This document shows, piece after piece, positions 976 to 34,545 of a stretch of DNA of 64,000 bases (the first letter of the stretch is position 1; each line of letters begins with the position of its first letter). A program made the translations under genes and the position numbers. The notes under the pieces were generated by a model. It was given only the letters and a program-made list of their open reading frames with translations, searched no databases and was not told where the DNA came from. Source of the DNA: Azolla caroliniana (Eukaryota > Plantae > Polypodiophyta); assembly GCA_043228905.1 (NCBI GenBank), contig JBHGNT010000002.1:13516001-13580000 (forward strand), in the 5' to 3' direction.

Positions 976-1492
976 GTTAAATCGGCAAGCACCACCGGTT
1001 TGGCAAATTGAACCACGAAGAAACCGGGATGAAGAAGAAGAACGCTGGCGGCGAGAGGAGTGCTATCGGCCAGCACAAGATGTCCGGTACAACGATCGAA
1101 GAGACACTTATGACCGGTATGACATACAGGATAGATACTGAGACTATAATGGACGGTACGAGAGATACAACCAGGATCACTCCCCTGGTTGCAACCAACG
1201 ACGGGACGACTATGGCAAGTATGACGACCAGCCCCATCAAGGTTACCGAAACAAAAAGAATTTCAACAAGAAACGTCATTTGAACAAAAAGGGGGGTCAT
1301 CCACGGGAACCGGAAAAGGGCGCTCCAAGCAGCCAACTGGACCAAAACTAAGCACTTACCACAGGACCTCAACTGGGGGCGGGCGCAAACGCCGAATGCA
1401 GCAACACCCGGAAGGCGTATTGCTATTATTGCCGACAGGAAGGTCACTATAGTAACCAATGTCCGACGAAGAGCTACGACAAGCGACCAACA

Positions 1493-4400
1493 ATGAACAT
1501 GGTAGATGCGGAAGTCGCGGACTTACAACAAGTCACTACAAGATCAAAAGGCAAAACCACGGAGTGGGAAACTCAAGAAGCTATCCGGAAGCAGGCAACC
1601 AAATGGGTGAAGAAGGCAAACGAGCGGAATGTAGTAGAGCTCGAACAACAAAAGCAGAATGCCGAAGAGCTCACCGGCCTGGGGCAGCCCAAAAACCCAA
1701 CATGGCAGGCGTTACAAGAATGCCAAATAATGCTGCCGTTAGGCCGGCTATTGCAACTGGTACCATGCTTCACGGAAGGACTAAAGACAGGAAGGACGAC
1801 AGCCGACACGCCACCGGCTCCCGCATTCTTTTCAAATCTGGAGGAAGGACCGACAGTGGTAGACATGAGCAGTCTGGCCATCACAGCCATCGTGAAAGGA
1901 AAAGAGCTACCTGGCACGATTATCGATGGAGGATCTGATGTGAACGTGATCAGCCTCCGAAGGTGTAACACTCTAGGAATCCATGATTGGGAACCATGCC
2001 TATTTTGGCTTCGGATGGCGGACACAAGCTTAGTACGGCTGGCCGAGTTAATACGTGATCTGGAAGTGACCATCGGGGGTCACACATTTCGCATTTCCAC
2101 AGTAGTTCTCCAGCTACAAGCTCAGGGAGCTTACCCAATATTGTTGGGACGCCCTTGGTTAAAAACAACACACATCAAGCAAAACTGGAGGAACAATATA
2201 ATGACGTTTCTGCGTGGAAAAGCGAAAGTGCGAGTACCGACTCAACCATGGTGCGGTACCGGCAATGAATTGACACCACTATATGCGGAATGCGTCAACA
2301 TGCTGGAAGGATTGGCGGACGAAGAGGTCGATCAATACTTAGAAGAAAATCTGAAGATCGTACCGCTGTTCAAAATTGATGTAGCCGAAGCAGTATCACC
2401 GTACATGCTGCAACCGGACGGGACCGACGAGGAACCGGATAAAGAAGCGATCCGGGAGTTACGGCAAGCACAAGAGGCACTGGAAAGAGAAATGGCGGTG
2501 TCGCAGCGCGTAAAAGCATCCCAACTAGAAGAGGTAAACCTAGGTACCACAGAGGACGCAAGACCAGTTCACATCGCCAAGGAAATGACCCTGGAGAACA
2601 AAACGAGAATGATCACACTCCTAAAAGAATTTTGCGATGTGTTCGCCTGGTCCTATGAGGAAATGTGGGGACTCGATCCTCAGTTGTATCAACACCAGAT
2701 ACATCTGAGTAAAGACGCCAAACCGGTAGCGCAACGGCGTTACCGGATGAACCCGAATTACACAACAAAAGTCAAAGAAGAAATCGACAAGTTGCTAAGG
2801 GTTGGCTTCATCCGACCGGTAAAGAAAGCCACATGGCTCAGTCCGATAGTCATAGTACCGAAAAAGAACGGTAAGATATGAGTTTGCGTCGACTACCGGA
2901 AATTGAATGCAGCTACGGTAATGGATGCCTTCCCACTTTCATTCACGGATGGAGTCCTGGATGCGGTCGCCGGTCATGAGATGTACAGTTTTCTGGATGG
3001 TTTTAGTGGCTATAATCAGATTCGGATGCACCCCGACGACCAGGAGAAAACCGCTTTTGTCACCGAATGGGGAGTCTTTGTTGCCATAGTGATGATGACC
3101 TCCCAACGGATCATCATGGAGATTTTCGGAGAATTCATTCCGGCATTCATGCAAATGTTCTTGGACGACTTCGCTGTTTATAGCTGGAAATGGGATCACC
3201 TTCAGCACCTCCAACTATGTTTAGAGAAATGTGGGGTTTACCGACTAAGCCTGAACCCGGCAAAATGCATGTTCGGAGTGTCCAACGGAGTGTTACTTGG
3301 CCACATCGTGAGCAAGGATGGTATTGCAGTGGATCCAGACAAGGTCAAAGCTATTTTGGAGGCACCGACACGAACCACGGCAAAGGCATTAAGCCGGTTC
3401 TTAGGACAAATTCGGTGGCATAGCCGAATGCTCCGGTATCTGGCAGACCTGGCTATACCATTGCATGCCACGGTACATCGGACACCGTTCCAATGGACGG
3501 ACACCGAAGACCAAGCCTTACCGGGCACTAAAAGTACTGTTGTCACAAGTGCCGGCAGTGCAACCTCCGGATTGGTCTAAAGAGTTCCATGTGTTCGTTG
3601 ACGCGTCTGACATCGCAATTGGGAGTGTGCTTATGCAACTTACAGAACCGAAGTGGTACCGGTTAGTGTATAATGCCATCCGGAAGCTGTCCCAAGTGGA
3701 ACGTAATTATTCCACAGCGGAAAGGGAGGCCTTGGGTATGATCTACAATGTCACCAAGTTTAGACACTATCTGTTGGGAAGGAAATTTTCCTTTCACGTA
3801 GATCATTCAGCGCTCCTCTATTTAGTGTCCAAAGCATCACTCACCGATAAGTTGGCCCGGTGGACGTTACTATTACAAGAATTTGAGTTCGAGATATTCC
3901 ACCGACCTGGCATACAACATGCGGTAGCAGACTATTTGAGCCGGTTAGATTCCGGCGAAACAGGTGACGGCGTTCCAAACGACTTCCCGGATTCAGAGCT
4001 GTTTAGAGTCACAGCAGAAACGGCAACGGATGGTACGGTCGCAGAGGAAGACAAGTGGCTCACCAACATGCACCAATTTCTGAGCATCGGTTTACCTTCG
4101 GAGGAGATGAACAGAGACGAGAGGAAACTCTTAGCGGTTCAAAGCCGGCACTTCTGTCTATTACAGGACACATTGTACCACAAAGGTGCAGATGGCATAT
4201 GGCGGCGTGCAGTGCGCAACGACGAAAAGGATATAATATTGCGTGAAGCACACTGCGGAGTGGCTAGAGGAAATTATGCCGGAGACGCTACGGCAAGAAA
4301 AATAGGGCAGAGTGGATTATGGTGGCCAACAACATTGAAGGATGCAATCCGGTACGCTAAAGAATGCGACCTATGTTAGCGAATGGGCCAACCAACCGAA

Positions 4401-5510
4401 CAAGCCAGGATGCCTCACCAGCCCGTGCTACTGTTAGAACCATTTCAGAAATGGGGGCTGGATTTTGTCGGTCCATTCAAACCACCAACAATGAGAACCG
4501 GCAACCGGTACGTGATTGTCGTTACGGATTATTGCACAAAATGGGTGGAAGCCAAAGCACTATGCGACAACACCGCGGCATCCACGACAAATTTTTTATG
4601 TGAATACATCTGGTGCCGGTATGGATGTCCGATAGAGCTAATAAGTGACCAAGGTGGGCACTTCTTAGGGCAAGTAGTGGAAAGTTTGACGACATTTTAT
4701 GCGGTGGTGCACAAACGAAGCACTCCCTATTATCCGCAAGCCAACGGATTAGCTGAGTCAACAAATAAAACACTATAGAACATCCTTCGGAAAATCGTCA
4801 ATGAGAACCAGACGGATTGGGATACAAAGCTACATAGTGCACTCTGGGCCTATCGAACGGCATATAAGACAAATATCCACACAACACTGTTTTGCCTAGC
4901 ATTCGGATTGGAAGCAGTGATGCCGGTCGAGTTCCAGGTACCGAGTTTACAAATGCAGATTCGGGAATGCCTAAATGAGAAGGAATCGGAAGCGATCCGG
5001 TTAGCCGCACTATGCGCATTGGAAGAACACCGGCTAGCCAGCATTATGCACCTAGAACTAGAGCAGCGGCGAAGGAAAATGTTCGTGGATCATCACCGAA
5101 AAGGGAATGAAATGATGTTCGGAATCTATAAGCCGGTACTAGTATTCCAGATCCGGATGGGTAAGATGCCGGGGAAGCTACGGTTTCGGTGGACCGGACC
5201 ACACTGGATTACGCGGGAGTTCAACGGGTCGTACCAGTTAAGGACACTCGCCGGCGAGGTTCTGGGTAAATGGGTAAATGGGTTCCGACTCAAACCATAC
5301 AATGGTCCCATGCCAAGAAACCCATTTGAACAAGTAAAGGCCGACACAGAACCGGACACCGGTAAGTCGAATGAAACGACAACACAATTCGCAATCGGCA
5401 AGAGGGAGCACGAGCCGGCAAATAGCAAGAACGACGCGACGGTAGGCAGTCCCACGGCTGGCAAGTCCCACAATTTGGGTAGGGGTCCGGCGGGCCCGGA
5501 TGCGAATTAA
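1493..5510 (+). pseudogene. pol (protease-RT-RNaseH-integrase) of gypsy copy 1
   Basis: ORF pieces 1493-2881, 2903-3580, 3465-4379, 4383-4778 and 4908-5510 carry consecutive pol motifs. Confidence 0.92.
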
Positions 5511-5830: not shown

Positions 5831-8753
5831 TTGAAGATCATCAGACGCGAGCCCACGCACACAGAGCCTCCTCAAACACACCCCTCACCAGCGCTCACCG
5901 ACCTCCAAGAAGCCATGGACTGCCAAGCACTCTTTGAAGCAGCCAAGAAGTGGCTAAGGCAACACGGGTTAGAAGGTTTCGTCACAATCTTGGAGGCGCC
6001 ACCGCACCGGGAGGCAAAGAAGATAGTAAAGGAAATCGACACGGAACTGATCACGGAGGAGGCCATCCATGCTTTGATTGGCCTTCCGGAGGGGGGCATC
6101 TTCCCTATCGACAACCCTACCCCGGAGCAGCTTCGAAAATATTTTGGGGAATACTCTCTGGCCAGCAAGGCTTACCGGACACAGGGTGGCAAAGATCCAC
6201 TATTTCAAGAGATTACCCGTGTGCTCCATGAATTTGGACATGTATACCCTCGACACCCGTGCATGCCTCAGAACCGAGTCGGCTTAATCATAGCAACATA
6301 TGAAGGCGTGAAGGTGGACTGGCCGGTACTGATTGCGGATGGCCTCTGTGCGGCCATCGACTCTATAAGAGGCAAGGAGGGTCGGAAGATATGGATGGCA
6401 GTTGTGAAATGGCTCACCCTATTGGCGCCACCTATCGAGCCCGTCAAGACCACGAAGCGGGGAAGAACAACCGAAGGCACCCCGAAAACGGCCTCGAAAC
6501 GGCATCAGATGTTGGCCTCTAAAGCAACCAAAGGGAAGGCGGCCGACATGGACCAAGCGGCAAAGGAGCGCGCCAATAGGAAGCGGCAGGCGGAAACGCA
6601 GGAGGAGCCACTGGCACGACCAATCAAGATCAGACTTCACCGACCGGTTCAACAAGAGCCGGACGCCTTGGCAGCAAAAATCAACATTGGGACTCAAGAG
6701 GAGGAAGTGGAGGAGGAATTGTTAGAGCACCTCCAACGGCACCAGAAGGCAAGCACCTCCGAACAGGCTGGGAAGCGTTCGGACCCAAAGAAGGATGGAA
6801 CGCCTCTACCCCGCACTGAGCATCCCGCACCAAGGGTGGAACCGGAACCGGTTCGGACAGAACCGGTCACAGAGCTTCCTGCACAATAAACTATATCGGC
6901 GGGTCAGGATATGGCAAGACCCGAAATGCAAGCGCCAGAAGTACAATTGCCTACCCCATCGGCATGTCAAGAGCAATCAGAGGCGGAGCGGCCAACGGAG
7001 CCGCAACCGGAACCAAAACGGCAAAGCGGTCCCCAACCAGAGACAGAGTTGTAGCTCGACACAACCAGACAAAACCGACCACTGGCCAGCGACAACAACA
7101 GCCAACCCTCCGGGCAGACGCAACAATAGGGCACCGACAGCCAATGGCTCCGGTGGATTGGAGAACAGATTGCCGGAGTGGTGCACTACATAGAGGCGGA
7201 AGAGAAAGCGTAGATGGACCAATTGCTCGTCACAACCGGAGAACTAGAGACAGCCCGGTCAAGGATCCGGAGCCTAGAACAAGCCTTGGACCTGGCCACA
7301 GAAGAATTGGCCAAAATGGCCTTAACCGGACCACCGATCCAAGCACCGGTGACTCCGGTAGATGTATAGAATAAAGACACACCGGCACCTGTACATAGCA
7401 ATAAGACCCCGGAGACGGAACCAGTCCTGGAGATAGTGACGACGCAAGCAAAAGAGCTTGCTGAATTGAAAGATGAACTAGCCGCACAAGAAGCATTACG
7501 CACCCGAGAAAGGGACTTGAAGAAAGCGGCAGAAGAAGAACAAAGGAAGACTGCTGAGAACCTCCGCCGGGCAGAAGACAATCTGCGGAAAGGACATCAA
7601 GCATATGACCGGCTTAAGGAGGAGAAAGAGAAAGCGCTGCAAGGAAACGAGAAGCTGCGACGGATGGTGGAAACGGAGATTGAAAGACTTAAAGAAGAAC
7701 TCCGTCAACAGAAGGATCGGGAAGACTGCGCTCGCCGGCAACTCAACCAGAAGCTGAAGCAGAAGACTGATGATTTTGAGCACCTGCACCGGGACTACAA
7801 GCAATTGGATACGGGGCATAAGAAACAACAGGAGAAGATGGCAGAGCTCCGATAGGAGGTGCATCGAGCTGAGATGACGCTAGTAGAGGAACGGGCTGAA
7901 AGAACCACGCTAGTAGAGAAAGCCGCGCAAGAACGTATGGAACTCCATAAGCAACATTATGAAGAGAAGGAAAGAGCGACAATGGTATTGCAGAGGTTGC
8001 AGAACACCTACCAACACCAATTGTCACATTACCAGGAGCAGGAGGCGGACACGGTGGCGCTGATCAAGCAATTCAAGGAAGAACGGCAAGCCGCGGAGGA
8101 CAAATCGAAGATGGGATTGGAGCGGATCCAGTTCATTGTCTAGGCATGGAGGAACAAGACAAAATGCTTGATCGACGAAAGCTCCGCGCAATGGTGGGAC
8201 AAATGGGCAAAACACACAACCGAACTCCAGTTGCTAAGGGCGGACGCGGAAAACCGGCAGAAGGATGGCGACGACTGCTACATGCTAACAAAGGAGGAAT
8301 TCACTGCCGTAAGAGATGAGTTAGCAGAAGATTTTGTAACTCTAACAGAGGAACAGTCAGCAGTGGTCCGACAACTGGTAGCACAACTGGACGATGATCG
8401 ACTGGATGCTCAAATCCAGTTTGAAAGCTATGAGCGGACCAGGCTACGGAAAGAAGAAGCAAAGTAGGCGGCGACCGTCAACCTCAGCGATGAGGAGCCA
8501 TCGCCGGGGCAAGGACCGGACGAAGACAAGGACGGGACGAGGCAACCGGAGTCAAATCCGATAGAGTAGCTGACGGAGGAATCACCGGCACAACCGCCGG
8601 TACTGGGAGCCTAACAAACGTCATCTAAGGAGCAACAGTCGGAGGAGCTGGAGCCACAACAGCAGTAGCCATAGCCACAACAGCAACAACAGAGTTTTGA
8701 AGAACCATTGGACACCCTGGAGCAGAGTATTCTGGATATCTTAGACGAAGGCT
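5831..8753 (+). pseudogene. Extra ORF downstream of pol (N-terminal globular domain, Pro/Glu-rich linker, long coiled coil), interrupted by stops
   Basis: ORFs 5831-6889, 7436-7855, 7859-8143 and 8168-8467 have protein-like composition and heptad-rich segments. Homologous pieces occur at 36133-36770 (RRWLHEKGLEGY vs KKWLRQHGLEGF) and about 38135-38560. Confidence 0.75.
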
Positions 8754-8808
8754 AAGGGCGGGATAGTGGGATTCAACGTACAAGGTACTGTCCCACGGGC
8801 GTGCCATG

Positions 8809-9182
8809 TGTTACCCGGCCGGCAAAGGAGTTAAAGACCAGAATGTGAAAGGGATGGGTTATTCGGAATAGATTATAATTAAGTAGTTTATGGGATGTGA
8901 ATGGACGGACCGGAATCGGTATGCCGATCTGGATCCGGACCAGTTCCGAACAGGTGCCAGTTGGCACCGTTTTGTACTCAGCACCGATGATCTATATAAA
9001 GGCCCGGTTACAATGTAAAACTTTGACGGATAATTAATAGAGCTTCTTGTTTTATCTTTAAGTGTTGATTACCGTTCTATACTAATTGTTCTATCATACG
9101 CGTGTATCAATCTAATGCCATATTGCTAAGTACCCAATTAAGTCTGATTAATCGTTGTGTCTTAAGTTATCTTGCCGTAACA
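8809..9182 (+). repeat. 3' LTR of gypsy copy 1 (374 bp)
   Basis: TGTTAC...GTAACA termini; TATA-like tctatataaa near 8991; start resembles the plus-oriented 5' LTRs at 33577/36938 (TGTTA.CCG...CAAAGG...AATGTGAAA). Confidence 0.8.
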
Positions 9183-9244
9183 CCCCTTTGGTGAAGTCTT
9201 CTGTAGACACCCTGTGTTAGGCCATTGTCCGGCCCTAAGGAGTA

Positions 9245-9870
9245 ACAGAGACGTCCCATTGAGCCATGTTGACCAAAAAGGAATAATGAGGAACATCTTG
9301 CATGTACCGATGATCACCAAGAACCTGGTGTCAGTTGCACAGATAGTCGACCAAGGTATGCAGGTTCGGTTCACTCAATGACATCATGGGTGCTTCATTA
9401 AAGAGGAAGGAAAAATCATCATGCAAGGTCGCTAAGAAGGGAGGATGTTTATCCTTGAAACAAATGATGTCAACACCGTTATGTTCGCTAAAGGGCAAAA
9501 GGTCGAGTTGGACATCAACCTGTGGCACAAGCGGTTTCGCCACATCAACTTCCCAAAGCTTCAAGTGATGCAGTTGAAACAAATAGTGTTTGGTTTGCCG
9601 AAGTTCAATGTTTCAAAAGGCCAAATATGTGAAGCTTGTCAACTAGGGAAGCATCACCAGTTTCCATTCCCCAACAAGCAAAATTAGAGCAGAAACAAGC
9701 TCATTTTGATCCATTCAGGTGTGTGGGGACAAACACAGAATGTGAACTTAGGCAGGAGTCAATATTTCCTCTGCTTCATCAACGACTATGGCTGACACAC
9801 ATGGATCTACCTCATAGAGAAGAAGAGTGATGTCTTCTCCTATTTTTGGAACTTGAAGAGTTTAGTCGAA
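9245..9870 (+). mobile_element. Ty1/copia fragment (post-protease, GAG-pre-integrase, integrase start)
   Basis: Closely similar to the element at 39284-44612 (VPLSHV..KG...LHVP.ITKNLVSV; LWHKRFRH; ICEACQLGK). Confidence 0.85.
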
Positions 9871-12164: not shown

Positions 12165-12572
12165 TGTCGAGATATTACGCAAGTGCGTGTGAAAATGAGG
12201 CGGGACCGCGGGGGTCTCGAACCAAAGAGCAAGCAAGGGAGGAGAAAGAGAGAGAACCGGCTACGCAGGACCGGGGATACGCAGGGACACGGCCCTTCAG
12301 CACGGAGAACGCGAACAGACACCGACACAGACAGATGCGAATGACTAAATATGTGTATTAACAAAAATGGCTAACACGACTACAACCCTCGATGGGGCAC
12401 AGGTTGTTTACAACCGAACAGGCCGGCGAACAGATGCCGATGCCTGTTCGCTCCGACGCACAAACGGGGTAGCAGGTCGGAGGTGCTGCCGGAAGCACTC
12501 GGGCGTTCCTCGAAACAGCGCGAGCCTCCTCGGAACCCTGCACAGAAGCTATGGAGCTCGAGAAGGAAGGAA

Positions 12573-12611
<39 letters not shown>

Positions 12612-12974
12612 CGCCCAGAAACGGTCCGTCAGCACTTCGTCCTCTCCGCGCGAGATGCCTGCAACAGCTCTTTCCTGCTCCTTATATAGGCCGACGAGCA
12701 GGCCGTCATGTCAGCTTTATTCCCTGTCCCTTTTGGACAGGGATCCGCTCCGTTTTTCACGCATCCGCGTAGTTACGCCGCCGACTCGTACAGTTCGCGC
12801 GCGCGACCGAAAAGACTGTTCGCGCGGTCTTTGTCTCCACTTGAGTTAGGGCCCATCCCTGCCGATTATCCTCCTAATTCGCTTCTATGTACAACTTGGA
12901 GCTTGCGCGCGCGAAGAACCGGTTCCCACGCCTTGGTGCGCCGATTCCGCCTATGGACGGTTTTCTTCACGACA
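12165..12974 (-). repeat. 3' LTR of the intact Trp-family element (810 bp)
   Basis: TGTCG...CGACA termini; direct repeat of 18696-19501. Confidence 0.97.
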
Positions 12975-12986
12975 TCCGCCCCCACC
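12975..12986 (-). promoter_or_regulatory. Polypurine tract (GGTGGGGGCGGA)
   Basis: G-rich run abutting the 3' LTR on the minus strand. Confidence 0.85.
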
Positions 12987-13045
12987 TAACCGCGCATCCT
13001 CCGGCATGCGCCAAGAGAGTTGGGACGGAGAAAACCGGCCCGTCT

Positions 13046-16000
13046 TCATTCCTCGCCCGTCGGTTCTTCCTCGTTTCCGGATCGTTCGTCACTGCTGACT
13101 AGGAGAGCCGGGTCCGGCTCATCGTCATGTCGCTTCTTGAACGCTTTGATCTGCTTCCCTGCCACCGGTATCGCCACTCTCGTGCCGTCAAGTTCCGCCA
13201 GGTGATATGTCCCGTTGTCATTGGCGCTCCGTACCACGTAAGGCCCGAACCACCTTCGTGCAAACTTCCGTGTAGCCCGGTGCTGGTTGTCGAGGCTGCT
13301 ATCGTAGACGAGCACCCAGTCACCTTCTTCGATTTTATCCGGTCGGAGCCGGTGCGTTCGGTCGAACCTGGCTTTGTTCTTTGCCCTTGCCGCCCGGAGC
13401 CTCTCCGCAGCCAGTTCCACGTCCTCCGGTCTCCGCTCGAGTTGTCGTATACGCGCGGCCAACAACTCCTCCCGGCTCATCTCGTCCCTCCAATCGACCG
13501 TTGCCCATGAGGAGATCGTCCGTTCCATCGGCATGATCGGCTTCTGGCCGAACATGAGCTCCGTCGGCATGTACCCGGTTACCGAACTGTGCGTGGTCCG
13601 GTCTGCCCACAAAGCATACGGTAGCAGCCGCGGCCAGTTACCGACTTGGCCTCCGCATGCCCGAACCAACGCCTTGACGATCGGCCCGTGTCCGCGCTCC
13701 ACCTTCCCATTCGCCTCCGGATTGTACGCAGTGGTGAGCGAGAGCTTGACTCCCAGCCGGTCGAACAGCTCCGCGGCTTCTTCGGCGTCCAACTCCCCTC
13801 GGTCAGCCACGATCTTCCCGACGCACCCGTACCGGCATATCACGTCTTCGATTAGGAACCGGCATACGGCCGCGGTCGTTTTGTTCGGAAGGGCCCGGCC
13901 TTCCACCTGGTTCGTCAGATCCTCCCGCGCTAGGACCAGGTACCGCATCTGTCCTACTCCCATTGGCATCGTTACCAGATCTACCATCCATTTGAAGTGG
14001 ATGGTCGGAGGGTACGTGGGGTGAAGCTCGTCTTGATGTCGGACTATGGAGTGCATCTGACAGCTCTCGCAAGTTGTCACGAACCGATGCACGTCCTGGT
14101 ACTGCCCCGGCCACCAATACTTCCCCTTCAGTTTCTCAAACGTAGCCCATGTTCCACGGTGTCCAGCCCAAGGGCTGTCGTGGTAGGCCGTCAGCAGCTC
14201 CTCCTGTTCTTCCTTCATCGCCACCACCCGGAGCGGAGCGCCGTCCCTCTTCTTCGGGTGCTTCCATAGGTAGCCATCCCGGAGAAAGAACCGGTACGCT
14301 TTCCTCCGGATCCGGTTGGCCTCGTCCTTCGTCCATGACGCATCGGGCGTCATTGTCTTCAGAAACCCACCGATCTGCAGCCACTCCCCGTCGTACTTGC
14401 TCGCGTCGAAGTCGTTAAGCGCCGGAGTGCTTGTCCCGCCGGTTGTTACATACGCAGTCTCGAAGAAGTCCACGCCGACCTCTTTGTCCTCCGAGACCAT
14501 GCCGCCCTCGTCCTCGAATCTCGCCCTTGAAAGCATGTCGGCCATGGTGTTGTCTTTCCCGGAAATGTGTCGTATTACCGGGTCTAGGGACTTGATGTAC
14601 GCTATCCACCTGAGCATTGCCAGGTCCGGCGTCGCGCATCCGGAAACCATGCCGAGAATCGGCATGCAATCCGTCTCTATGATTACCTCCGTCCCGATCA
14701 GATAGTCCTTGTCGGCCTTCACCGCCGAAACGATACCCCAGAGTTCGCGTTTAACCTGGGCGTATCCTCGCTGCCGTTCGCTGAGGACCTTCGCGCCGAA
14801 TCGGATCGGAAACCGATTGCCGTCCTCGTCTTCTTGGTTGACGACCCACCCGATTCCGGTCGGACTCGTGTCAACCGTTATGTACACTGGGGTGCCCTTC
14901 CCGTAGACAGCCTTTCGGAGCGCCGGTGCTGCCGAAAGAGCCTCCTTCAGCTTCCGGACCGACTCCGCGTGCTTGTCTAGCCATTCGAATCTTCGCCCTT
15001 TCTTCAATAATCCGTACAGCGGCTCCGCGACGTGCGCGTAATGCGGGATCCATATGTGGTAGAAGGCGCATGCTCCCAAGAATCTTCGTACTTCCGTGAC
15101 CGAGCTGCAGTCAGGCTTCATCGCGGAGATGGCCTCTACCTTTGCCGGAGACGGTTTCCGGCCATATGGCCCGCACAAATGTCCGACCACCATGATTTCC
15201 GATTGCCCGAAGGCTGATTTCTCCCCCGAGAAGGTGAGCCTCGCAACCTCTAGCCTTTGCAGCACCTTCTCGCAGTCGCCGATGTGCGCCATCACGAATC
15301 GCCGGCATCCGTCCGGCCCGACCGTCTCGTCCTTCTCTTCTACCGGGCATCCCTTGATCGGGATGTCGTCTAGAAACGGCATGGTGATGTCCGGGATGCA
15401 GTCCCTCAGCACCTTGTTCATTGCATTCACCATGTGGGCCACCGAGTTGGTCCCTCCTTGCGGCAGCGTACACATCCGCACTAGGCCGAGGGGAGTTCGC
15501 ATCGTCGTGATGTCTCTGCTCTCCACGGCTAGCTGGAACTGGTCGTACCCCGAGTATAGATCACCGACCGAGTAAATCGACCTTCCGGCGAAGGCCTCCG
15601 CGAACTCGTCTATGGTCGGTCCGATCCCTGCGTTCCGAATGGTCACTCTATTGACCGGCTGCAGGTCCTGAATGAAGCGCAATGATCCGTTTTTCTTTGG
15701 CACGGTAAACCAGCGGTTTGAATACGGGGCGCTCGACGGCTCGAGAATGCCCATATCAACTTTCTGCTTCAACAGCTCCATCAACTTCGGGATGTGAGCT
15801 CTCGGAACCGAAATTGGCTTGAGATTCCACGGTACATGCGGTACCGTGAATATCACCATCGGCTCTACGATCGTCGGGTCCACGCACCCGATTTCCTCCG
15901 GCGAGAATGCGAAGGCTTTCCCGTGCCTTCCGAGCATTCTCCGGAACCGGTCTTCCTCCATCGGCAGTAGGAACCCGCCCCCACCGATCTTCAGCTCGCG

Positions 16001-16528
16001 GAGCGTCTCGTTGGTGAAGGTGTGTCCTATGCAGGCCGGATCTCGTAAGCTGGGGTCCGATGCAACCCCTTTGATTCGGGATTCGCTGCCCTCCGGTAAG
16101 GGCGCCGCAACTGGCCTCACCTTCCGGTCCACCGTCTTGTACTTGGTGCTCACTCGGGCCGTTCGTTCCGACTCGAGCCCTTGACCGAAGTCCGCGATGA
16201 CTTCGTACATTTCTTCGGAACATACCGGTATCGTCCGGTCTTCGTTAAGGTCTTCTTCGACTACCTTCCCCAACATCCCCAAGGTGTCGTCGAAGGAGAC
16301 TGCCTCCACGGCTCCGTTGATTTCTTCGTCAGGGCCGAGAACTCCGCACGCCCGAAGCCTCCCCTCCGTCTTTGTTTTCTCTCGGCCGGTGACGCCGACC
16401 ATCGTCCATGCTCCGCTGTCGGAGAAGCAAAATTTCCTACCTATTGTACACGGTTTTATCGTACAGATGTGGGGTTTTTCCGGAGCATCCGGACTGTCGC
16501 GGCCCCACGCCTTGGCAGTCCTCTCTAA
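13046..16528 (-). CDS. pol ORF (RT-RNase H-integrase), in the -1 frame relative to gag-PR; first ATG at 16402
   Basis: 1118 aa from the ATG: RT (DLYSGYDQ, LPQG, FLDD), RNase H (VDTSPTGIG), integrase (HHCC, VDLV, ADRG, PEANGKVERG, WFGPY). I checked that the frame is stop-free upstream to the gag stop. Confidence 0.95.
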   Translation of the reverse strand, partial: LERTAKAWGRDSPDAPEKPHICTIKPCTIGRKFCFSDSGAWTMVGVTGREKTKTEGRLRACGVLGPDEEINGAVEAVSFDDTLGMLGKVVEEDLNEDRTIPVCSEEMYEVIADFGQGLESERTARVSTKYKTVDRKVRPVAAPLPEGSESRIKGVASDPSLRDPACIGHTFTNETLRELKIGGGGFLLPMEEDRFRRMLGRHGKAFAFSPEEIGCVDPTIVEPMVIFTVPHVPWNLKPISVPRAHIPKLMELLKQKVDMGILEPSSAPYSNRWFTVPKKNGSLRFIQDLQPVNRVTIRNAGIGPTIDEFAEAFAGRSIYSVGDLYSGYDQFQLAVESRDITTMRTPLGLVRMCTLPQGGTNSVAHMVNAMNKVLRDCIPDITMPFLDDIPIKGCPVEEKDETVGPDGCRRFVMAHIGDCEKVLQRLEVARLTFSGEKSAFGQSEIMVVGHLCGPYGRKPSPAKVEAISAMKPDCSSVTEVRRFLGACAFYHIWIPHYAHVAEPLYGLLKKGRRFEWLDKHAESVRKLKEALSAAPALRKAVYGKGTPVYITVDTSPTGIGWVVNQEDEDGNRFPIRFGAKVLSERQRGYAQVKRELWGIVSAVKADKDYLIGTEVIIETDCMPILGMVSGCATPDLAMLRWIAYIKSLDPVIRHISGKDNTMADMLSRARFEDEGGMVSEDKEVGVDFFETAYVTTGGTSTPALNDFDASKYDGEWLQIGGFLKTMTPDASWTKDEANRIRRKAYRFFLRDGYLWKHPKKRDGAPLRVVAMKEEQEELLTAYHDSPWAGHRGTWATFEKLKGKYWWPGQYQDVHRFVTTCESCQMHSIVRHQDELHPTYPPTIHFKWMVDLVTMPMGVGQMRYLVLAREDLTNQVEGRALPNKTTAAVCRFLIEDVICRYGCVGKIVADRGELDAEEAAELFDRLGVKLSLTTAYNPEANGKVERGHGPIVKALVRACGGQVGNWPRLLPYALWADRTTHSSVTGYMPTELMFGQKPIMPMERTISSWATVDWRDEMSREELLAARIRQLERRPEDVELAAERLRAARAKNKARFDRTHRLRPDKIEEGDWVLVYDSSLDNQHRATRKFARRWFGPYVVRSANDNGTYHLAELDGTRVAIPVAGKQIKAFKKRHDDEPDPALLVSSDERSGNEEEPTGEE

Positions 16529-16534
16529 AAATCC
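16469..16534 (-). promoter_or_regulatory. Predicted -1 ribosomal frameshift signal (G_GAU_UUU, 6-nt spacer, pseudoknot)
   Basis: Heptamer 16534-16528 directly before the gag UAG; stems GGACUG/CAGUCC and GUGGGG/CCCCAC. Confidence 0.75.
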
Positions 16535-18651
16535 TCTCGGGTTTCGGAACCGAGGGAATCGCGGTTACGTTCGTGGTTCGGCCGTACCGTCAGAAACTGG
16601 ACCGAATGGCGCCCGTCTTGGCTTTTGACCCTCGCGTAGGCCGAACCGTTGTCCAGCACCTTGGTCTCCATTCGCGCCGCCGTGATGTACGGCTCTCCCA
16701 GAATGACCGGATGCGAAGACTTCTCCTGCACGAAGAAGTGCTGGTCAATCTCGACGTCGCCGATCTTGACTCGCACATTCGGACAGGCCCTGTGCAGTTC
16801 CTCGGTGGCGCGCGTTGCTGCCCTTATTTTCCACCCGTGCTTGGTGTTGATCGGCCATTTGCCCTTCTTATAGAAGTCCATGGACATCAAATTGATCTCC
16901 GATCCGTGGTCCACCAAGGCTATCACCGGTTCCTGGACATCGCCGATCTTCACCGGGGTTTCCGTGGTCGCTCGGGCCCAGTGTGGTCTCGAATAGTGGC
17001 TTTCCGCCCACTCGTCTCCCAGCGCCATGTCGTCTAGGTGCGTCGCCCGCACTTCCACCGGTCTTTCCGGTTCTGTCTCCGTCGACAGCCTCTTCCGTTT
17101 CACCAAGTCCACGATGGAGTCGTGGAACTCCTTCTTGGCGATTCCCAGCACCTCTCGTAACGACAGCTCCACCTTGCTGTCGAGGATCCGTTCCTCCAGG
17201 ACCTTTCGTAAGTCCGTGGTCCTTTCTATCTCCGTCCCCAGACGGTACCCGCCCTTCTGGGGTTTATCTTGCGTACCGGCCCCGCCGGCTTCGTCCCGTC
17301 GTGGCCCGGACCGGGTCTCGTATCGTTGTGAGGGCCCGGTCGTCCCGGGTCTCCCCACCCGCTTCTCTTCTACTAGAGCCTCGTAGTTCTGGCAAGCGGC
17401 TTCCACGAAGCCCGTCCTTTCCTCGACCGGGTCGCTCCACCCGGTCATCTCCCGTACCCGTTTCTCCGCACGGTCCGATTCCTCCCCTTTAAGCCTTGCA
17501 TCGGCAAGGCCTTCCAGCATCGTCGGCCAGAATCCGGCTTTGCTTCCCCCTCGGGCCTCGCCGCCCCCGACTCGAATGCCGGCCGACGCCGAGTAGTGGA
17601 CGGTTTCCACGTGTCGGGCCGCCGCCTCTTCCATCAACCTTTTCATACCACCTTTCCCGTCGTTTCGGCTCAGGGCCCTTCGGGTGTCGCTGGCATGCAC
17701 CCGTCCTTCCCACAGGTACACCACCCTGTCCCTTAGCGCCTCCACGAAGTCGCCGCAGTCCTTCCGAATGTGGCCGACTTCATCGCACCACATGCACCTG
17801 TTTCCTGCCGCCGGCCGTCGGTCACGAGCCGGTTCGCCACCTTCCCTTCGGGCTTGCGCGATTTGGAGGTCCTTTACCGCCCTCGTCAATTCCTCCAGCG
17901 CCGCTCCTCCGGTTGAGCCTCTGACTACGCCGGTCGAAGCCGAACCGGTTTCCAACCACCCCTGGGTCTCTTCCTTGCGCACCTGTGGCGCTGGTTCAAG
18001 CTTCCTTGCTGCGACCGAGCCCGACCCGGTCGCCCCGTTATCCGCCCATTCTCGTCGTTTGTCGAAACGGCCACAGACCTTCCTAACAGCCGCCCAGTCG
18101 GTAGTGAGCCCGTCTTCGGTTTCCAGCAAGAGGCCCACTTGCTCCCGATCCCGCTCGTCGACCGACTTGACAAACAGCAAGACCCGGCTCGTGTCCAGGA
18201 TGGTTCGGTCGAGCGCCGAAAGGCGCGCAAAGTTTTCCTCGAACTCCCGGAGGAGCGCCGACGCGTTTCTTCCCTTCCCCGGGGACTCCACCCATTCCAT
18301 GAACCTTCGCTTCGAAAGCCGGAGCGCGTCGTCCAGCCCGTATTTCTCTAGGAGCCGACCTTCGAACTCCTCCCAGGTACGGCTCTCCGTCCGCACCTCG
18401 AGCACCTCCGCATGGATGCTCGGCATCGCCACTCGGGGAAATCCGGCAAGACGCCTTTCTTCCGGAATGTCCCGCATCAGCATCTCTGCACCGTAGGACG
18501 CCAAATACTTCGTGGCATCCTTCCCGTCGAACCGGCCGATCGTGCCGACGACCGCCTCAATAGCTCTGTCGAGGGCACCGGTGATCTCGCGCGCGTTTAC
18601 AATCCGATCCACGGCCGAAGCCATGGCCTCTGCGAGGTCCGACCCCTTCAT
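16525..18651 (-). CDS. gag-protease ORF (708 aa from ATG 18651)
   Basis: Zn knuckle CMWCDEVGHIRKDC; aspartic protease ALVDHGSEINLM...ILGEPY in the same ORF; no stops. Confidence 0.93.
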   Translation of the reverse strand: MKGSDLAEAMASAVDRIVNAREITGALDRAIEAVVGTIGRFDGKDATKYLASYGAEMLMRDIPEERRLAGFPRVAMPSIHAEVLEVRTESRTWEEFEGRLLEKYGLDDALRLSKRRFMEWVESPGKGRNASALLREFEENFARLSALDRTILDTSRVLLFVKSVDERDREQVGLLLETEDGLTTDWAAVRKVCGRFDKRREWADNGATGSGSVAARKLEPAPQVRKEETQGWLETGSASTGVVRGSTGGAALEELTRAVKDLQIAQARREGGEPARDRRPAAGNRCMWCDEVGHIRKDCGDFVEALRDRVVYLWEGRVHASDTRRALSRNDGKGGMKRLMEEAAARHVETVHYSASAGIRVGGGEARGGSKAGFWPTMLEGLADARLKGEESDRAEKRVREMTGWSDPVEERTGFVEAACQNYEALVEEKRVGRPGTTGPSQRYETRSGPRRDEAGGAGTQDKPQKGGYRLGTEIERTTDLRKVLEERILDSKVELSLREVLGIAKKEFHDSIVDLVKRKRLSTETEPERPVEVRATHLDDMALGDEWAESHYSRPHWARATTETPVKIGDVQEPVIALVDHGSEINLMSMDFYKKGKWPINTKHGWKIRAATRATEELHRACPNVRVKIGDVEIDQHFFVQEKSSHPVILGEPYITAARMETKVLDNGSAYARVKSQDGRHSVQFLTVRPNHERNRDSLGSETREDF

Positions 18652-18673
18652 CTTCTGCTCTTCTGCCGCCTCT

Positions 18674-18691
18674 TTCACGTCGGGTTCACCA
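18674..18691 (-). promoter_or_regulatory. Primer binding site complementary to tRNA-Trp 3' end
   Basis: TGGTGAACCCGACGTGAA, 4 nt from the 5' LTR; complementary to ...TTCACGTCGGGTTCACCA, the plant cytosolic tRNA-Trp 3' end as I recall it. Confidence 0.9.
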
Positions 18692-18695
18692 AATA

Positions 18696-19103
18696 TGTCG
18701 AGATATTACGCAAGTGCGTGTGAAAATGAGGCGGGACCGCGGGGGTCTCGAACCAAAGAGCAAGCAAGGGAGGAGAAAGAGAGAGAACCGGCTACGCAGG
18801 ACCGGGGATACGCAGGGACACGGCCCTTCAGCACGGAGAACGCGAACAGACACCGACACAGACAGATGCGAATGACTAAATATGTGTATTAACAAAAATG
18901 GCTAACACGACTACAACCCTCGATGGGGCACAGGTTGTTTACAACCGAACAGGCCGGCGAACAGATGCCGATGCCTGTTCGCTCCGACGCACAAACGGGG
19001 TAGCAGGTCGGAGGTGCTGCCGGAAGCACTCGGGCGTTCCTCGAAACAACGCGAGCCTCCTCGGAACCCTGCACAGAAGCTATGGAGCTCGAGAAGGAAG
19101 GAA

Positions 19104-19138
<35 letters not shown>

Positions 19139-19501
19139 CGCCCAGAAACGGTCCGTCAGCACTTCGTCCTCTCCGCGCGAGATGCCTGCAACAGCTCTTT
19201 CCTGCTCCTTATATAGGCCGACGAGCAGGCCGTCATGTCAGCTTTATTCCCTGTCCCTTTTGGACAGGGATCCGCTCCGTTTTTCACGCATCCGCGTAGT
19301 TACGCCGCCGACTCGTACAGTTCGCGCGCGCGACCGAAAAGACTGTTCGCGCGGTCTTTGTCTCCACTTGAGTTAGGGCCCATCCCTGCCGATTATCCTC
19401 CTAATTCGCTTCTATGTACAACTTGGAGCTTGCGCGCGCGAAGAACCGGTTCCCACGCCTTGGTGCGCCGATTCCGCCTATGGACGGTTTTCTTCACGAC
19501 A
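18696..19501 (-). repeat. 5' LTR of the intact Trp-family element (806 bp)
   Basis: Direct repeat of 12165-12974. Confidence 0.97.
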
Positions 19502-21865
19502 ACGTGACCCTGAATAACGAATGGTTTTCGAACTATTCGGCTGGCACCAACGACACAATTCGACTAGGCAACAAGCAAGAGTGCGTAATCGCAAGGATTG
19601 GAAAGGTCCCCATCCAATTGCCAAATGACAATACCATCACCCTGCACCAAGTCCAATTTGGTCTCCATCGGCATGTTAGTCAAAGACGAGTACAGAATGA
19701 CTCTCAGTGAGTCATCATGGATGATGAACCGAGGAAATCTAAAAATCGGGATGGCGCCACACAGATATATGGGGACTGATGCCTGAAAGGTCACTAGGAG
19801 GTTCCTGATACTTCATCACATTTGTAGATGATTGTACATGGAAGGTCTGGGCCTACTCAATTAGGTCAAAAGATGAAGTGCTCAAGGTCTTCACCCAGTG
19901 GATAGCTGAAGTGGAGAACTGATTGGGATACCGAGCGAAGACATTATGATCTGACAATGGAGGTGAATACACCTCCCGGACCTTCAAATAGTACTTGTCT
20001 GACAAAGGGATTCGGCACCCAAAGATTGTTCCCTACACACCCATGCAGAATGGATCAACTAGATGATCCAAGAGAGGGTGATGGCAATGCTCTAGCACTC
20101 CAGAGTAAAGCTAGAATTCTGGGTTGAGGCACCAAAGACGACCATCTATTTGATAAATCTATCACCGTCGAAGGAAGTGCAGCTCAAAGTGCCACAAGCA
20201 CTATGATTAGGCAAAAAACTGACCTATGACAGATTTTGTATATTCGGATGCGAAGCCTATGCATTCATCCCCAGGGACAACAGGAGAAAGTTGGCACCCC
20301 ATGCAACCAAAATTGGTTGGCAAAAAGGTTTCCTTTGAAATTGATAGAGATGTCGTTGAAGGACCGATCCACCGGGCTGAATCAGAAATTTGATAAACAA
20401 TCGAAGAAAACCAAGCCAACGATCCCTTTGCCGAATCCGAATTGGCAAGAGGTCGAAATAGATTCAACTAAGAGATTGATAAGAGGTGAAAGAGATAGAG
20501 TCAAAACAACCAAATCACCCAAACAAGCGAAGGTACTAAAAGGTCGGACAGAACCGACCAAGGAACTAACCAATCCGTCCATCGATCCCAAACAAAGTGA
20601 GGATGATTTGACATCGTCAAAATCCTATTGCAGAGGCAAATCATTGAAAATGACTCCTAAAGATGGTTCAAGACATACCAATCAACCAACAGAGATGATC
20701 GAAGAATCTGAACCGAACACATCGACACTCAAGAGATCCAGACAAGTTTGAAGGCTAATAGAGTTCTATCAATCGGACCTCGACTACGTCAACTACATGG
20801 ACATAGGCGAACCAAGCTTTTACGAGACATTTACATGTCTCAACCGGCAGGCGTCACGGTGACGAGGGAGGAAAGTCACCTCGTATGTCGACTGAAGAAA
20901 AGACTGAGGATGTGGTACTAGACCCTAAACCACTGAGGATGTGGTACTAGAAGTTCAACTCCTACATCATGTAGCTTGGTTACTACCGATCTGACTTTGA
21001 CCCATGTATGTATACTCGGCAACTAGCCGATGAGTCTTGGACCTATATGGTCCTATACGTCGACGACATGCTAATTGCAGGGAGCAATCAAGACGAAATC
21101 GGAAAGCTAAAACGAAGCCTTCATGAGAAATGTGCAATGAAGGAACTCGGACAAGCCCGACACATACTGGACATGAGGATTGAGAGAAATCAGAAGCCAA
21201 AGACTCTCCGGCTCTCCTAGTCTGACTATATCTGAAAGGTGCGGAGGCGCTTCAATAAGGAAAATTTGAAGCCAACACCAACACTTCTTCTGACGTCAAT
21301 CCGACTGTCGGACAGAGACTCTTCTTCGACGGATAGGGAGAGAGAGCTCAATAGGAAGATATCCCACGCATCAGCCGTAGGAAGCATGATGTATGCGATG
21401 GCGCCATCTTGACCCAACCTTACGTATGCCGTAGGGGTCGTCAGCCGATATATGTTGAACCCGAGATGGAAGCATTGGGAGACCATCAAGCACATCTTCA
21501 GGTATCTAAGAGGAACCGAAGATGTACAATTGACTTTCGGATTAGCAAATCTGACCAAAGTCAAAGGCTATACCGACTCCGACTATGCCGGAAATACGAA
21601 AAATCGGAAGTCGACCTCAGGCCATCTTTTCACCTATGGTGGTAGCGCCATATCATGGAGGCCCAAGCTTCAAGAGTGCATGACCCTGTCTACCACAGAG
21701 GCCAAGTACATATCAGCATCAGATGCAACGAAGGAAGCAATCTGGCTGCACCAATGGTCACCAGACTTCTCAACGACAAAACGAATCGACCATCCAACAC
21801 CAACCATGTATTGTGACCCTCAGAGCGCTATACACCTCATTCGAAATCTAGTCTATTATGCAAAG

Positions 21866-24200: not shown

Positions 24201-24223
24201 GAACCGCCGGGGTTATGGACATG

Positions 24224-25400
24224 TTTGTGAAAAGGAGAGGTGCATGGGAAAGCCTGAATCAATCCCTAGTCACAAGGCAAACGAATGCACGCGAGGAAGG
24301 CTTACACACGGACACACAAAGAAGGCTTACACAAAGAAGGCACGAGTATTCGAACGTGTTTGTGACAAGGAGAGGTGCATGGGCAAGCCCGAATCAACCG
24401 CTAGTCACAAGGCGAACGAATGCACATGAGGAAGGCTTACACACAGACACACAAGGAAAAGGCTTACTTACACACACGAGAGACACAGTTTCAAATGCCT
24501 TTGTGAAAAGAGAGGTGCATGGGCAAGCCCGAACGCTCCCTTGTTACAAGGCACGCAAACACACAACGAAGGTTTACACACGGGAGATACAATTTCGAAC
24601 ACCTTTGTGAAAGGAGAGGTGCATGGGCAAGCCCGAACGCTCCCTTGCCACAAGTTCCATAAACACAGAAGCAAGATTTACACTAACACGCAAGACACGA
24701 AAGTTTGAATGCCTTTGTGAAAGGAGAGGTGCATGGACAAGCCCGAAACGCACCCTTGTCACAAGACACACAAACAAATAAGCACAAATGACAATTGTTG
24801 TATGTTTTAGGGTTAGGGTTAATGATGGTAATGATAAAGATAGGAATAGTGTTAACAATCATGGTAGATTAATGAAGATAGACATGGTGATGGAGAGTAT
24901 GATGGTGAGAGAAGCATTGCGGGGTGGGGGGTGGTGCCCAGAATGGCTCCACCCCCCTCCCAAGGGGTTCAACATTAAAGGGGAGAGAGAGAGGGAGAAA
25001 GAGATGACAAGAGAGAGAGAGATTGAGAGAGAAATGGTTATTCATTTTTTCATTCATTCCCCATAAGGGGTTAAATAGGTACAAAGGGGTAGATCCACAA
25101 GGGTCCAAGCCCCTTGGGCATTCACACCTAGTCACTTACTCACACCTCTTTGTATCCACCACACTCACACTTACATTCACACCCACATACATATCAACGC
25201 ATTACATCGTTCACCCTGTAAGTTTGAGTGCCTTTGTGAAAGGAGAGGTGCATGGGCAAGCCCGAAATGCTCCCTTGTCACAAGACACACAAACAAATAA
25301 GCACAAATGATGATAACATATAAGATACGTAAGTTTGAATGCCTTTGTGAAAGGAGAGGTGCATGAGCAAGCCCGAAACGCTCCCTTGTCACAAGACACA
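24224..25400. repeat. Array of 7 conserved ~55-nt hairpin repeats with variable A/C-rich spacers, interrupted by a ~430-bp insert (about 24790-25220)
   Basis: Core TTTGTGAAAGGAGAGGTGCATGGGCAAGCCCGAAACGCTCCCTTGTCACAA at about 24224, 24359, 24500, 24604, 24714, 25233 and 25344. Confidence 0.9.
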
Positions 25401-25517
25401 CAAACAAATAAGCACAAATGACAATAACATATAAGACACATAGGTGAAACCAAACATTAGTTTATTACAATATAATAGATTCTTTTATAAAATAAGAATC
25501 AATTTTACAACGGGTTT

Positions 25518-32990: not shown

Positions 32991-33875
32991 ACAAGAATTT
33001 CACATTTTCATTGACGCTTCCAACGTGGCTATCGAAAACGCTCTAATGCAAATGACGCCTCCAAAATGGTATCGGCTAGTGTACTACGCTAGCAGACGAC
33101 TCTCATCGGCCAAAAAGAACTATTCAACAACGGAATGCAAAGCACTCGGAATGATATACAACATAACAAAGTTTCGGCATTATCTGCTCGGCCGTAAATT
33201 TACGTTACACGTCGATCACTCGGCCCTACTATACTTGGTCACAAAGCAGACGTTGAACGACAGATTGGCATGATGGATGTTACTTCTGCAAGAATTCGAA
33301 TTTAATATACAGCCCTGGCCAGGGGTACACGCGGTAGCGGACTATCTAAGTTGGCACGATTCGGGGGAACCAGCCCAAACCATGTTCGACAATCTTCCCA
33401 ACACCGACATTTTTGGTATCAACCTTGACACAGAACACGCCGAATCCAGTGATGGGTGGATAGATGACATGATTCACTTCCTCAGCACGAGGCTTCGACT
33501 AGAGCAATTGCCCCTCGATGCAAAGAAGGGGTTAGCAGTTAGAAGCCGAAATTTTTGCTTGGTGGACGATACAATCTGTTATCCGTGGGACAAAAGGGAT
33601 AAAATGTGAAACGAATTCAAGAATACGAGTAGGTAATGTAGGTGAAAAATGACAACCGGGAATGAGGAAGGTAACGGAATATGTGCAACCGAGAATGAAG
33701 GCCGAGAAGAAAGGATTGACTAAACCGCGCAAAGTAGAAAGGGAAGTTATAAAAACGAGAAGCAGAATCAGAAGGAAGAGAGAGACAAAAGAGGAGAATG
33801 ATTGTTATCTGTCTGATTGTATAAGAATAGAACTTCGACTCTAAGCCCTGTAACAACAAAATTTGGCACACCCGG

Positions 33876-34545
33876 TGTCGTGGAGAAAACCGTCCCTAGG
33901 CGGAATCGGAGAATGATGTGCGCGAACCGGCCCTTACATGCGGGCACAAGTTTTGTTGTAATGTACATATTTAGGTACAAGTCGGCTGATATGAATATCC
34001 TAGGTCGCACGGATTTGATAGGTAGGAAATCGAGGCATATCTCTATCCGAAAGGACAGAGAATAAAGATGACGTAACAAGTTGTAACGGCCTCCCTCCTT
34101 GGGCTATAAAAGAGAGGGAGAGGAATCGGAAAAGCGATCGCTTTTGTCGAGGACGAAGTGCTGTCGGACTGGGACTGAGCTCTTCTCCTCCGTCTTTCTC
34201 TATATTTGCTGTGCAGGTTTTCGGGAGGCTGACTCTGCTCTGCGGAACGCCTGAGTGCTTCTGACAGAGTCTCCATCTTGCTCTTCTATGTGCATGTGCG
34301 TAGGCGTAGGATATTTGTCGCTCACCGGCCTACCGGTTGTAACCCCTTTTTCATCAGAATATATATATACATATACGCATTCGTCTCATTTCTGTTGTTT
34401 CATTTGGTTGCGGTTTCTGTGTATCTATGTGTGTGTGGAAGCACGGCCATTGTCTTTCTTGCTCCTACTCCTCATCGGTTATTTCTCGGTCCAAGACCCC
34501 CTTGGTCCCGCCTCGTTGTATACGCACACGCGTAACAACGTGACA
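33876..34545 (+). mobile_element. Solo LTR of the Trp-primed family, 4-bp TSD CCGG
   Basis: Starts TGTCGTGGAGAAAACCGTCC like the intact element's LTR; CCGG at 33872-33875 and 34546-34549. Confidence 0.9.

Follow-up and report, generated by a model that had tools for sequence, protein, structure and literature searches.

Which signal starts the plus strand of an LTR retrotransposon that carries the 3′ end of a tRNA at the place where its polypurine tract (PPT) is expected? In the passages used here of two papers (PMC5371799, PMC10085805), retroviruses and LTR retrotransposons are taken to share the priming of the plus strand from a PPT. The window, i.e. the whole stretch of 64,000 nucleotides that was analysed, is plant DNA dense with nested retroelements, and a sequence-only reading of it had pointed to a non-purine tRNA-Arg 3′ end two nucleotides before an LTR. 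This arrangement is indeed present, as GTCCCACGGGCGTGCCA occupies 8790-8806 and is followed by TG and by the LTR start TGTTAC at 8809.

Table 1. Features of the element that carries the tRNA-derived site, with positions in the window
Feature	Position	Strand	Basis or remarks
Decayed Ty3/gypsy gag-pol, 5′-truncated	977..5510	+	Pfam zf-CCHC, RVT_1, RT_RNaseH, rve; zinc knuckle, protease region, RT, RNase H, integrase
Extra sense ORF, broken in the window copy, acidic C-terminus	5831..8755	+	stop TAA 8753-8755
Block 1, tRNA-Arg(UCU) nt 49-58 (T-stem 5′ strand and T-loop) with one extra A	8766..8776	+	comparison with L002
13-nt insert between tRNA nt 58 and 59	8777..8789	+	C, 4-bp stem 8778-8781/8785-8788, 3-nt loop, T
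Block 2, tRNA nt 59-65; nt 66 absent after it	8790..8796	+	comparison with L002
Block 3, tRNA nt 67-76 including the CCA of the mature tRNA	8797..8806	+	comparison with L002
2-nt spacer (TG in the window)	8807..8808	+	length fixed, sequence free
3′ LTR, 439 bp, TGTTAC...GTAACA	8809..9247	+	relatives L010, L026, L069, L074; TATA-like CTATATAAA at 8992-9000

The element and its gene content

The gag-pol of the element (Table 1) is truncated at about position 977, inside gag, and the window copy has no 5′ LTR and PBS of its own. Its reverse transcriptase (RT) is of the Ty3 type and the integrase is placed after the RNase H, as in Ty3/gypsy elements. The best solved-structure matches are the Gag-Pol and the RT of Ty3 (E 5.8e-80 and 2.3e-70), and relatives in the two loci L010 and L074 show 80-93% amino-acid identity to the window gag-pol. 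The extra ORF that follows is separated from the 3′ LTR by 53 non-coding bases. It has no Pfam match, and its links in the Atlas to clusters of Transposase_32 and ATHILA are weak (ATHILA cluster 0.83, 118 features). The corresponding ORF of Athila elements carries PF03078 in some cases. Homologs of it stand in sense and upstream of the tRNA-Arg site in 11 of the 22 element loci, and in the 11 loci that have any protein match, the best matches are all sense and none is antisense.

The RNase H motifs are intact in protein P0121, and no second RNase H family (aRH), as is typical of OTA/Tat, was found on the scanned window ORFs or on P0121 and P0122; behind the integrase, this absence rests on the window ORF 4779-5507, which has no match, and L010 stops within the integrase. 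We regard the element as a Ty3/gypsy non-chromovirus that lacks aRH and carries an extra sense ORF. Among the matches listed, its nearest named proteins come from Riccia, Adiantum, Marchantia and Calypogeia at ~50%. A quick RT-RH tree, which took in 55 of the 120 matches listed and no labelled Athila references, places it with fern and liverwort proteins and apart from those of conifers and angiosperms (SH-aLRT 84 for the non-seed-plant group). The integrase homolog search returned almost exclusively short contigs. L069 has an integrase ahead of the extra ORF, at 1-1211, that shares just 26% identity with that of the window and therefore belongs to another element or to a chimeric contig.

Orientation of the 3′ LTR and the PBS of the family

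On the minus strand, the junction resembles an LTR followed by two nucleotides and a PBS, and it had been acknowledged from the start that 8790-9182 could be the PBS and 5′ LTR of an independent minus-strand insertion; the window copy lacks a 5′ LTR and so offers no target-site duplication for comparison. An alignment of LTR against LTR within the window left the orientation unsettled by itself (best z 2.5 for plus, others below 1.3), and only the purine gradient and the TATA position indicated plus there. It was the relatives that settled the matter. In all four metagenome loci that reach that far (L010, L026, L069 and L074), an LTR identical to the window LTR at 371-382 of 439 bases is followed on the plus strand by CAGTTTT and then by the PBS TGGCGACCAC, which gives the usual combination of a TG...CA LTR and a tRNA PBS, and L010 and L074 continue past the PBS into gag, protease and RT in sense. 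These loci are short-read contigs whose ends may be joined via a collapsed LTR, and the direction is fixed nevertheless. As the LTR has its own PBS, and in two loci also gag-pol, behind it on the plus strand, it is plus-oriented. The site therefore precedes a 3′ LTR, which refutes the reading as a minus-strand insertion, and together with the sense orientation of the extra ORF this confirms that the element really ends here. The loose contig ends behind 9239/9247 and the best protein matches in 11 loci, all of them sense, agree. An artefact of this kind, or a relic in the form of a once-captured tRNA piece that drifts neutrally, is hence extremely improbable.

The LTR does not end at 9182, as had been assumed, but at 9247 (GAGTAACA). 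Contig depth stays high through the bin 9229-9255 and then drops 150- to 500-fold in all four contig runs described below, the loose contig ends behind 9239/9247 lead into a PBS in three of the four (agreement 0.4-0.6), and copia-element homology begins at 9248.

The sequences at 22442, 33864 and 37225, which had been read as the PBS of this family, are PBSs, although of related elements, and the window family has TGGCGACCAC instead. They match tRNA-Arg(UCU) over 10-12 nt and stand 5-8 nt behind the LTR. The LTR start of another family is inserted directly behind the PBS at 33876 and 37237. The 5′ PBS of the window family thus fits a different tRNA from that of the 3′ site; plant tRNA-Arg(UCG) is a candidate. 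A pattern scan of IMG/VR for the tRNA of TGGCGACCAC returned viral-contig tRNAs of several types, and in human the letters of this PBS are assigned to tRNA-Trp in the passages used of PMC4724089.

Two loci carry unusually long PBSs. That of L037 (~949-983, on the strand of the site) is a 35-nt perfect complement of tRNA-Arg(UCU) nt 42-76, and site, LTR and PBS stand there in a row on one strand. The PBS of L099 is an imperfect complement of tRNA-Arg(UCU) that reaches through the anticodon arm, compared with 18 nt in a usual PBS and 10 nt in other families. The long PBSs suggest that the RT may copy past nt 58 in these elements.

A tRNA-derived site before the 3′ LTR

The stretch 8766-8806 is a 41-nt sense copy of tRNA-Arg(UCU) nt 49-76 in three blocks, the CCA end of which lies two bases before the LTR. 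The reference for this match was L002, which ARAGORN calls as a tRNA-Arg(TCT) gene and which shares its assembly with the element loci L049, L063 and L065; positions were counted from the 3′ end. Against this gene, the match to tRNA-Arg(UCU) with a gap of about one nucleotide, as proposed in the sequence-only reading, could be shown to consist of nt 59-65 and 67-76, nt 66 being the missing one. The upstream GTGGGAT at 8766 had been proposed as a pairing partner that mimics a T-stem; this potential exists, but the motif is more than that and belongs to another block of the tRNA copy, which has nt 49-58 plus one additional base. At 8775, the window copy has A, whereas 95-99% of the contig depth has G, as in the tRNA T-loop. 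The insert sits exactly at the boundary between nt 58 and 59, which is the edge of the classical 18-nt PBS.

GTCCCACGGGCGTGCCA is unique in the window even if three mismatches are allowed (chance mean 0.09). Its last 10 nt occur three times, here on the plus strand and in the PBS copies at 22442 and 37225, with a chance expectation of 0.13 and 0 of 100 shuffles. A tRNA gene or a tRNA-derived SINE was considered and rejected, as cloverleaf and 5′ half are missing and the match begins only at about nt 49; ARAGORN found no tRNA gene in the window, and Rfam nothing tRNA-like within 8500-9300.

Absence of a polypurine tract

There are eight purines among the last 15 nt before the LTR of the window element, and the longest purine run within 60 nt has five; in all 23 other sites among the matches listed, the corresponding values are 8-9 and 3-8. 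No PPT abuts the 3′ LTR in any of them, in contrast to two other elements of the window that have G-rich tracts abutting their LTRs (minus strand, ~12975-12991 and 39689-39697). Other copies might have been found to carry a PPT at the LTR or to use AAGGGCGGGA, and this would have spoken against the sequence-only reading; such a refutation did not come from the 23 listed sites. AAGGGCGGGA was rejected as a PPT in its own right, since it overlaps the stop of the extra ORF, lies 45 nt from the LTR and is specific to this copy (G at 8760 is C in 91-95% of the depth). An internal tract of the Athila type, with its motif TTTGGGGG, was also sought in three post-pol stretches, which contain just scattered purine runs of 9-12 nt.

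The sites were collected by motif, so that PPT-retaining relatives could not appear in the sample, and the relatives are short contigs among which no two-LTR copy with a target-site duplication was seen. In IMG/VR, a protein-anchored search found no element, a scan with the junction pattern gave no match, and a scan with the site pattern gave one, a tRNA gene on a viral contig. We take the site to stand in place of the PPT as a conserved cis-element.

Conservation of the site across families

The arrangement had initially rested on a single copy, and a metagenome scan was carried out in which the tRNA blocks were fixed, while insert, nt 66, CCA, spacer and LTR were left free. Out of an estimated total of ~190 stretches, at least 131 matches over 123 loci were obtained (122 loci from the metagenome scan and one from the site-pattern scan of IMG/VR). 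Among these at least 131 matches, 103 have no insert and are mostly tRNA-Arg(TCT) genes, and 23 have an insert of 13 or 14 nt and lack nt 66. Five of the 28 insert-bearing matches (L046, L058, L067, L097 and L113) were left out of this count because their insert has another length or nt 66 is kept, and in none of the five does CCA follow. Among the matches listed, the CCA is exact in 19 of the 23 sites and one C>T change away in the other four, and a TGT stands exactly two nucleotides behind the CCA position in all 23. The letters of the spacer vary (GG in 10 of the 23 listed sites, TG in 8, CG in 2, TA in 2, AG in 1). By the identity of their flanks, the 23 listed sites and the window copy fall into eight families. 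Between-family similarity is 38% and 44% in the flanks and 86% in the site, the last value being inflated by the search pattern. A profile search of the loci added two full sites of the same layout that the pattern had missed (L029, L057).

Independent of the search pattern is the depth of contigs from four runs (organisms A-D from two studies, with 745, 1343, 454 and 426 contigs) that were aligned to 8735-8850. For A-D, the summed depth is 256195, 404459, 181222 and 180589 at 8791-8794, compared with 3963, 4193, 838 and 420 at 8751-8754, and this 65- to 430-fold ratio, although not a measure of copy number, shows that many sequences share the site but not its flanks. Loose contig ends lead into other ORF tails ahead of the site and into other LTR starts behind it. 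An inserted base at nt 66 is not listed at the 1% level in any of the four runs, and the other changes listed inside the site amount to at most ~6% of the depth and are mostly C>T or G>A. The arrangement is thus a trait of a lineage and not the accident of one copy.

The presence of the site is independent of the type of the 5′ PBS, and it is retained in the 2523-base unit of L063, which has no match to any fetched protein, as is expected of a cis-signal for replication. We conclude that the site is real, conserved and under selection.

L063 belongs with L023, L029, L040 and L076 to a family with an apparently non-coding unit of ~2.5 kb, which is tandem or collapsed. This family has a 10-nt PBS for the same tRNA, tRNA-Arg(UCU), two bases behind the LTR, which makes the edges of its LTR mirror-symmetric. 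In L029, the ~2.5-kb unit follows a tail of the extra ORF.

The hairpin insert and the folding of the site

The insert forms a short hairpin, the stem of which occurs in four compensating Watson-Crick versions across the families (GTAC/GTAC, GTGC/GCAC, GGGC/GCCC and AGGC/GCCT). In 16 distinct rows, 95.3% of the stem cells are paired, compared with 78.3 +/- 3.2% after shuffling, and none of 500 shuffles is as high; the covariation score is 0.569 compared with 0.272 (again 0 of 500), and slid registers pair at 14-67%. Related rows inflate these counts, two of five covariation measures do not exceed the shuffles (113/500 and 444/500), and a stem pair is broken in two of the 16 rows (L049 and L086). 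The compensatory changes, together with the conservation across flanks that cannot be aligned, exclude the neutral drift of a captured tRNA piece.

Co-folding of the L002 tRNA with the minus strand of the site, for which RNA parameters stand in for DNA and the tRNA is unmodified, predicts the same three-way junction for all 18 distinct sites at -15 to -30 kcal/mol. In this geometry nt 67-76 and 59-65 are paired, nt 66 is bulged, the insert is looped out and nt 49/51-58 are paired. The hairpin has a probability above 0.5 in 16 of the 18 complexes with the tRNA and in 11 of the 18 free minus-strand DNAs, but in only four of the 18 free plus-strand RNAs.

The fold of the RNA itself bears on the main rival of the tRNA-priming model below, in which the element's own site RNA would survive RNase H, be cut after the CCA because it resembles the junction of a tRNA primer, and prime like a non-purine PPT, so that no second tRNA would be needed. 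Such a primer in cis would require just the standard PPT step, and the RNase H of Ty3 is described, in the passages used of PMC5371799, to pick its primer by hybrid geometry and by the fit between RT and primer. The RNA of the window family can form a T-stem mimic of 6 bp, with a pair between nt 60 and the extra A, which is G in L065, and 8754-8808 folds better than its shuffles (z -2.27); wider and narrower windows, however, are no better than theirs (z -0.10 and -0.44), and the mimic varies from 3 to 8 bp between families with shifts of register. For an RNA held in a hybrid there is no obvious reason to match the T-loop 20-28 nt away from the cut, Rfam finds nothing tRNA-like, and the covarying hairpin is the one that is rarely formed by the RNA alone. 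We consider priming in cis unlikely.

A further possibility is that the site acts on the RNA only, either as the 3′ half of a bipartite PBS as in Ty3, which would hold on to the tRNA at the PBS by its 5′ strand, or as a pairing partner of the PBS that circularises the genome, the plus strand then using another primer. The loss of nt 66 makes the plus-strand site a perfect and contiguous 10-bp partner of tRNA nt 1-10 (-21.7 compared with -17.9 kcal/mol), and the same deletion gives 10 bp in only four of 46 distinct tRNA acceptor sets, two of which are G7 forms of Arg(UCU); it does not do so in the A7 forms, which are the commonest Arg(UCU) forms among the matches listed. Where both ends use tRNA-Arg(UCU), PBS and site pair at -29 and -46 kcal/mol, and the 3′ tRNA-binding sites of Ty3 and of Drosophila Gypsy bridge the genome ends according to the passages used (PMC5371799, PMC1635307). 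In the window family, by contrast, bridge and direct pairing both fail because its PBS is for another tRNA: PBS and site pair at -13.9 kcal/mol in scattered fashion, and yet the site is unchanged. For this family, the earlier idea that the PBS and its complement circularise the RNA or prime on themselves is accordingly weak, and self-priming was rejected. A role in the RNA would also leave unexplained that the CCA and two nucleotides precede the LTR in 23 of 23 listed sites and that the PPT is missing, and the sites of Ty3 and Gypsy, in the passages used, complement arms of the tRNA and adjoin a PPT. As the sole function of the site it appears rather improbable.

A proposed tRNA primer for the plus strand

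Position, sequence match, lack of a PPT, conservation and covariation of the site are observed; annealing, priming, removal of the primer and loading we infer from sequence and folding. Conservation and folding are best fitted by a model in which a second host tRNA, tRNA-Arg(UCU), primes plus-strand DNA at the 3′ site, and the suggestion to this effect in the sequence-only reading probably is right, although it keeps the standing of a model. The first strand would be primed at the ordinary 5′ PBS, in the window family by a different tRNA. After the minus-strand DNA has been copied through the site, tRNA-Arg(UCU) would anneal to it and start the plus strand at a point two bases ahead of the LTR, and the site would work as a second, mirror-image primer-binding site. 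The predicted duplex of tRNA and minus-strand DNA comprises about 25-30 bp within a three-way junction, with the DNA hairpin bulging out at the nt 59/58 boundary. In other LTR elements the integrase trims a short terminal extension, and by analogy the 2-nt spacer may provide such an extension for trimming. As the RNase H motifs are intact, the annealed tRNA would have to escape cleavage long enough for its extension. The 10-bp partner of tRNA nt 1-10 that results from the loss of nt 66 means that the RNA could catch the 5′ strand of the tRNA, and, more speculatively, the plus-strand RNA may in this way help to open the tRNA in a strand-exchange loading step.

With slightly less confidence than in the priming itself, we lean towards a broader view, namely that this is a widespread lineage of Ty3/gypsy elements in non-seed plants in which both strands would be primed by host tRNAs (two different ones in the window family) and the PPT would be replaced by a tRNA-loading device, the RNA taking nt 1-10 by virtue of the loss of nt 66 and the minus-strand DNA taking nt 49-76 around the hairpin.

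Comparison with known systems

With the canonical PPT-primed Ty3/gypsy elements, as represented by yeast Ty3 in the passages used of PMC5371799, the window element shares the LTRs, the 5′ tRNA PBS, the order gag-PR-RT-RH-INT and a dedicated element directly before U3. This element is a 12-15-nt purine tract in yeast Ty3, whereas it is a 41-nt tRNA copy with a hairpin here. A tRNA-related site near the 3′ end of the genome also exists in the bipartite PBS of Ty3 and Ty1 (PMC5371799) and in the second PBS of Drosophila Gypsy (PMC1635307). As described in the passages used, those sites lie on the RNA as complements of arms of the tRNA that primes the minus strand; they serve to start this strand or to bridge the ends, and a PPT is present as well. 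In contrast, the window site has the sense of the tRNA, carries its CCA at the edge of the LTR, replaces the PPT and can match another tRNA than the 5′ PBS does. It is mainly tRNA-sense and complements just nt 1/2-10 of the tRNA, and differs in this from a bipartite PBS of the Ty3/Gypsy type.

The non-chromovirus OTA elements of the Athila kind, as far as they are treated in the passages used of the REXdb paper (PMC6317226), likewise show no chromodomain or aRH match, a long extra sense ORF after pol and a PBS for a tRNA other than Met; in those passages there is no mention of a tRNA copy next to the 3′ LTR. According to the same paper, the majority of elements possess a PPT; ferns do not appear in its main text, and its small supplement text files, as distinct from the large element tables outside this scope, contain no match for either PBS decamer. 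Self-priming Tf1/Sushi and Tcn1 also depart from the textbook pair of primers (PMC10085805, PMC6317226, in the passages used), but there the minus-strand primer is changed and the PPT is kept, whereas here the plus-strand signal is replaced. A full-text literature search, which mostly excluded subscription papers and the large tables of REXdb, yielded no account of an element in which a tRNA copy stands where the PPT is expected.

What has been replaced, then, is a core replication signal in a known kind of element. Under either of the two leading mechanisms, an abundant lineage in which a tRNA-derived site has taken over from the PPT would break the rule of PPT priming. Such a lineage would show how an RT with intact RNase H can use on a DNA template either a second tRNA or something that mimics one, and both priming steps would be tied to the supply of host tRNA and possibly of tRNA fragments. 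The rules of primer selection become testable with a 41-nt element. For annotation, LTR filters that rely on a PPT are expected to miss or to mis-orient such elements because their 3′ junction reads as an LTR and a PBS on the other strand.

Other features in the window

A young Ty3/gypsy element at 12165-19502 on the minus strand (DUF4100 gag, 1172-aa pol), with near-identical LTRs and a G-rich tract at its 3′ LTR, lies inside a copia element. The segments 33405-34545 and 36766-37886 form a local duplication of ~1.1 kb that is 91-97% identical and comprises a pol fragment, an LTR, a PBS and a second LTR. At 24219-25425, an array of 104-135-bp repeats, broken by another insertion, is found within the gag-pol of an element that starts at about 21860. 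The minus strand of 54435-56763 carries a 2OG-Fe(II) dioxygenase gene with an LPWKET motif and long low-complexity inserts, which presumably is GA20-oxidase-like; it makes a fern the likely host, since in a word-limited and weak search the only two of 42 candidates that match at E 1e-20 or better are from Adiantum capillus-veneris (58%) and Ceratopteris richardii (56%).
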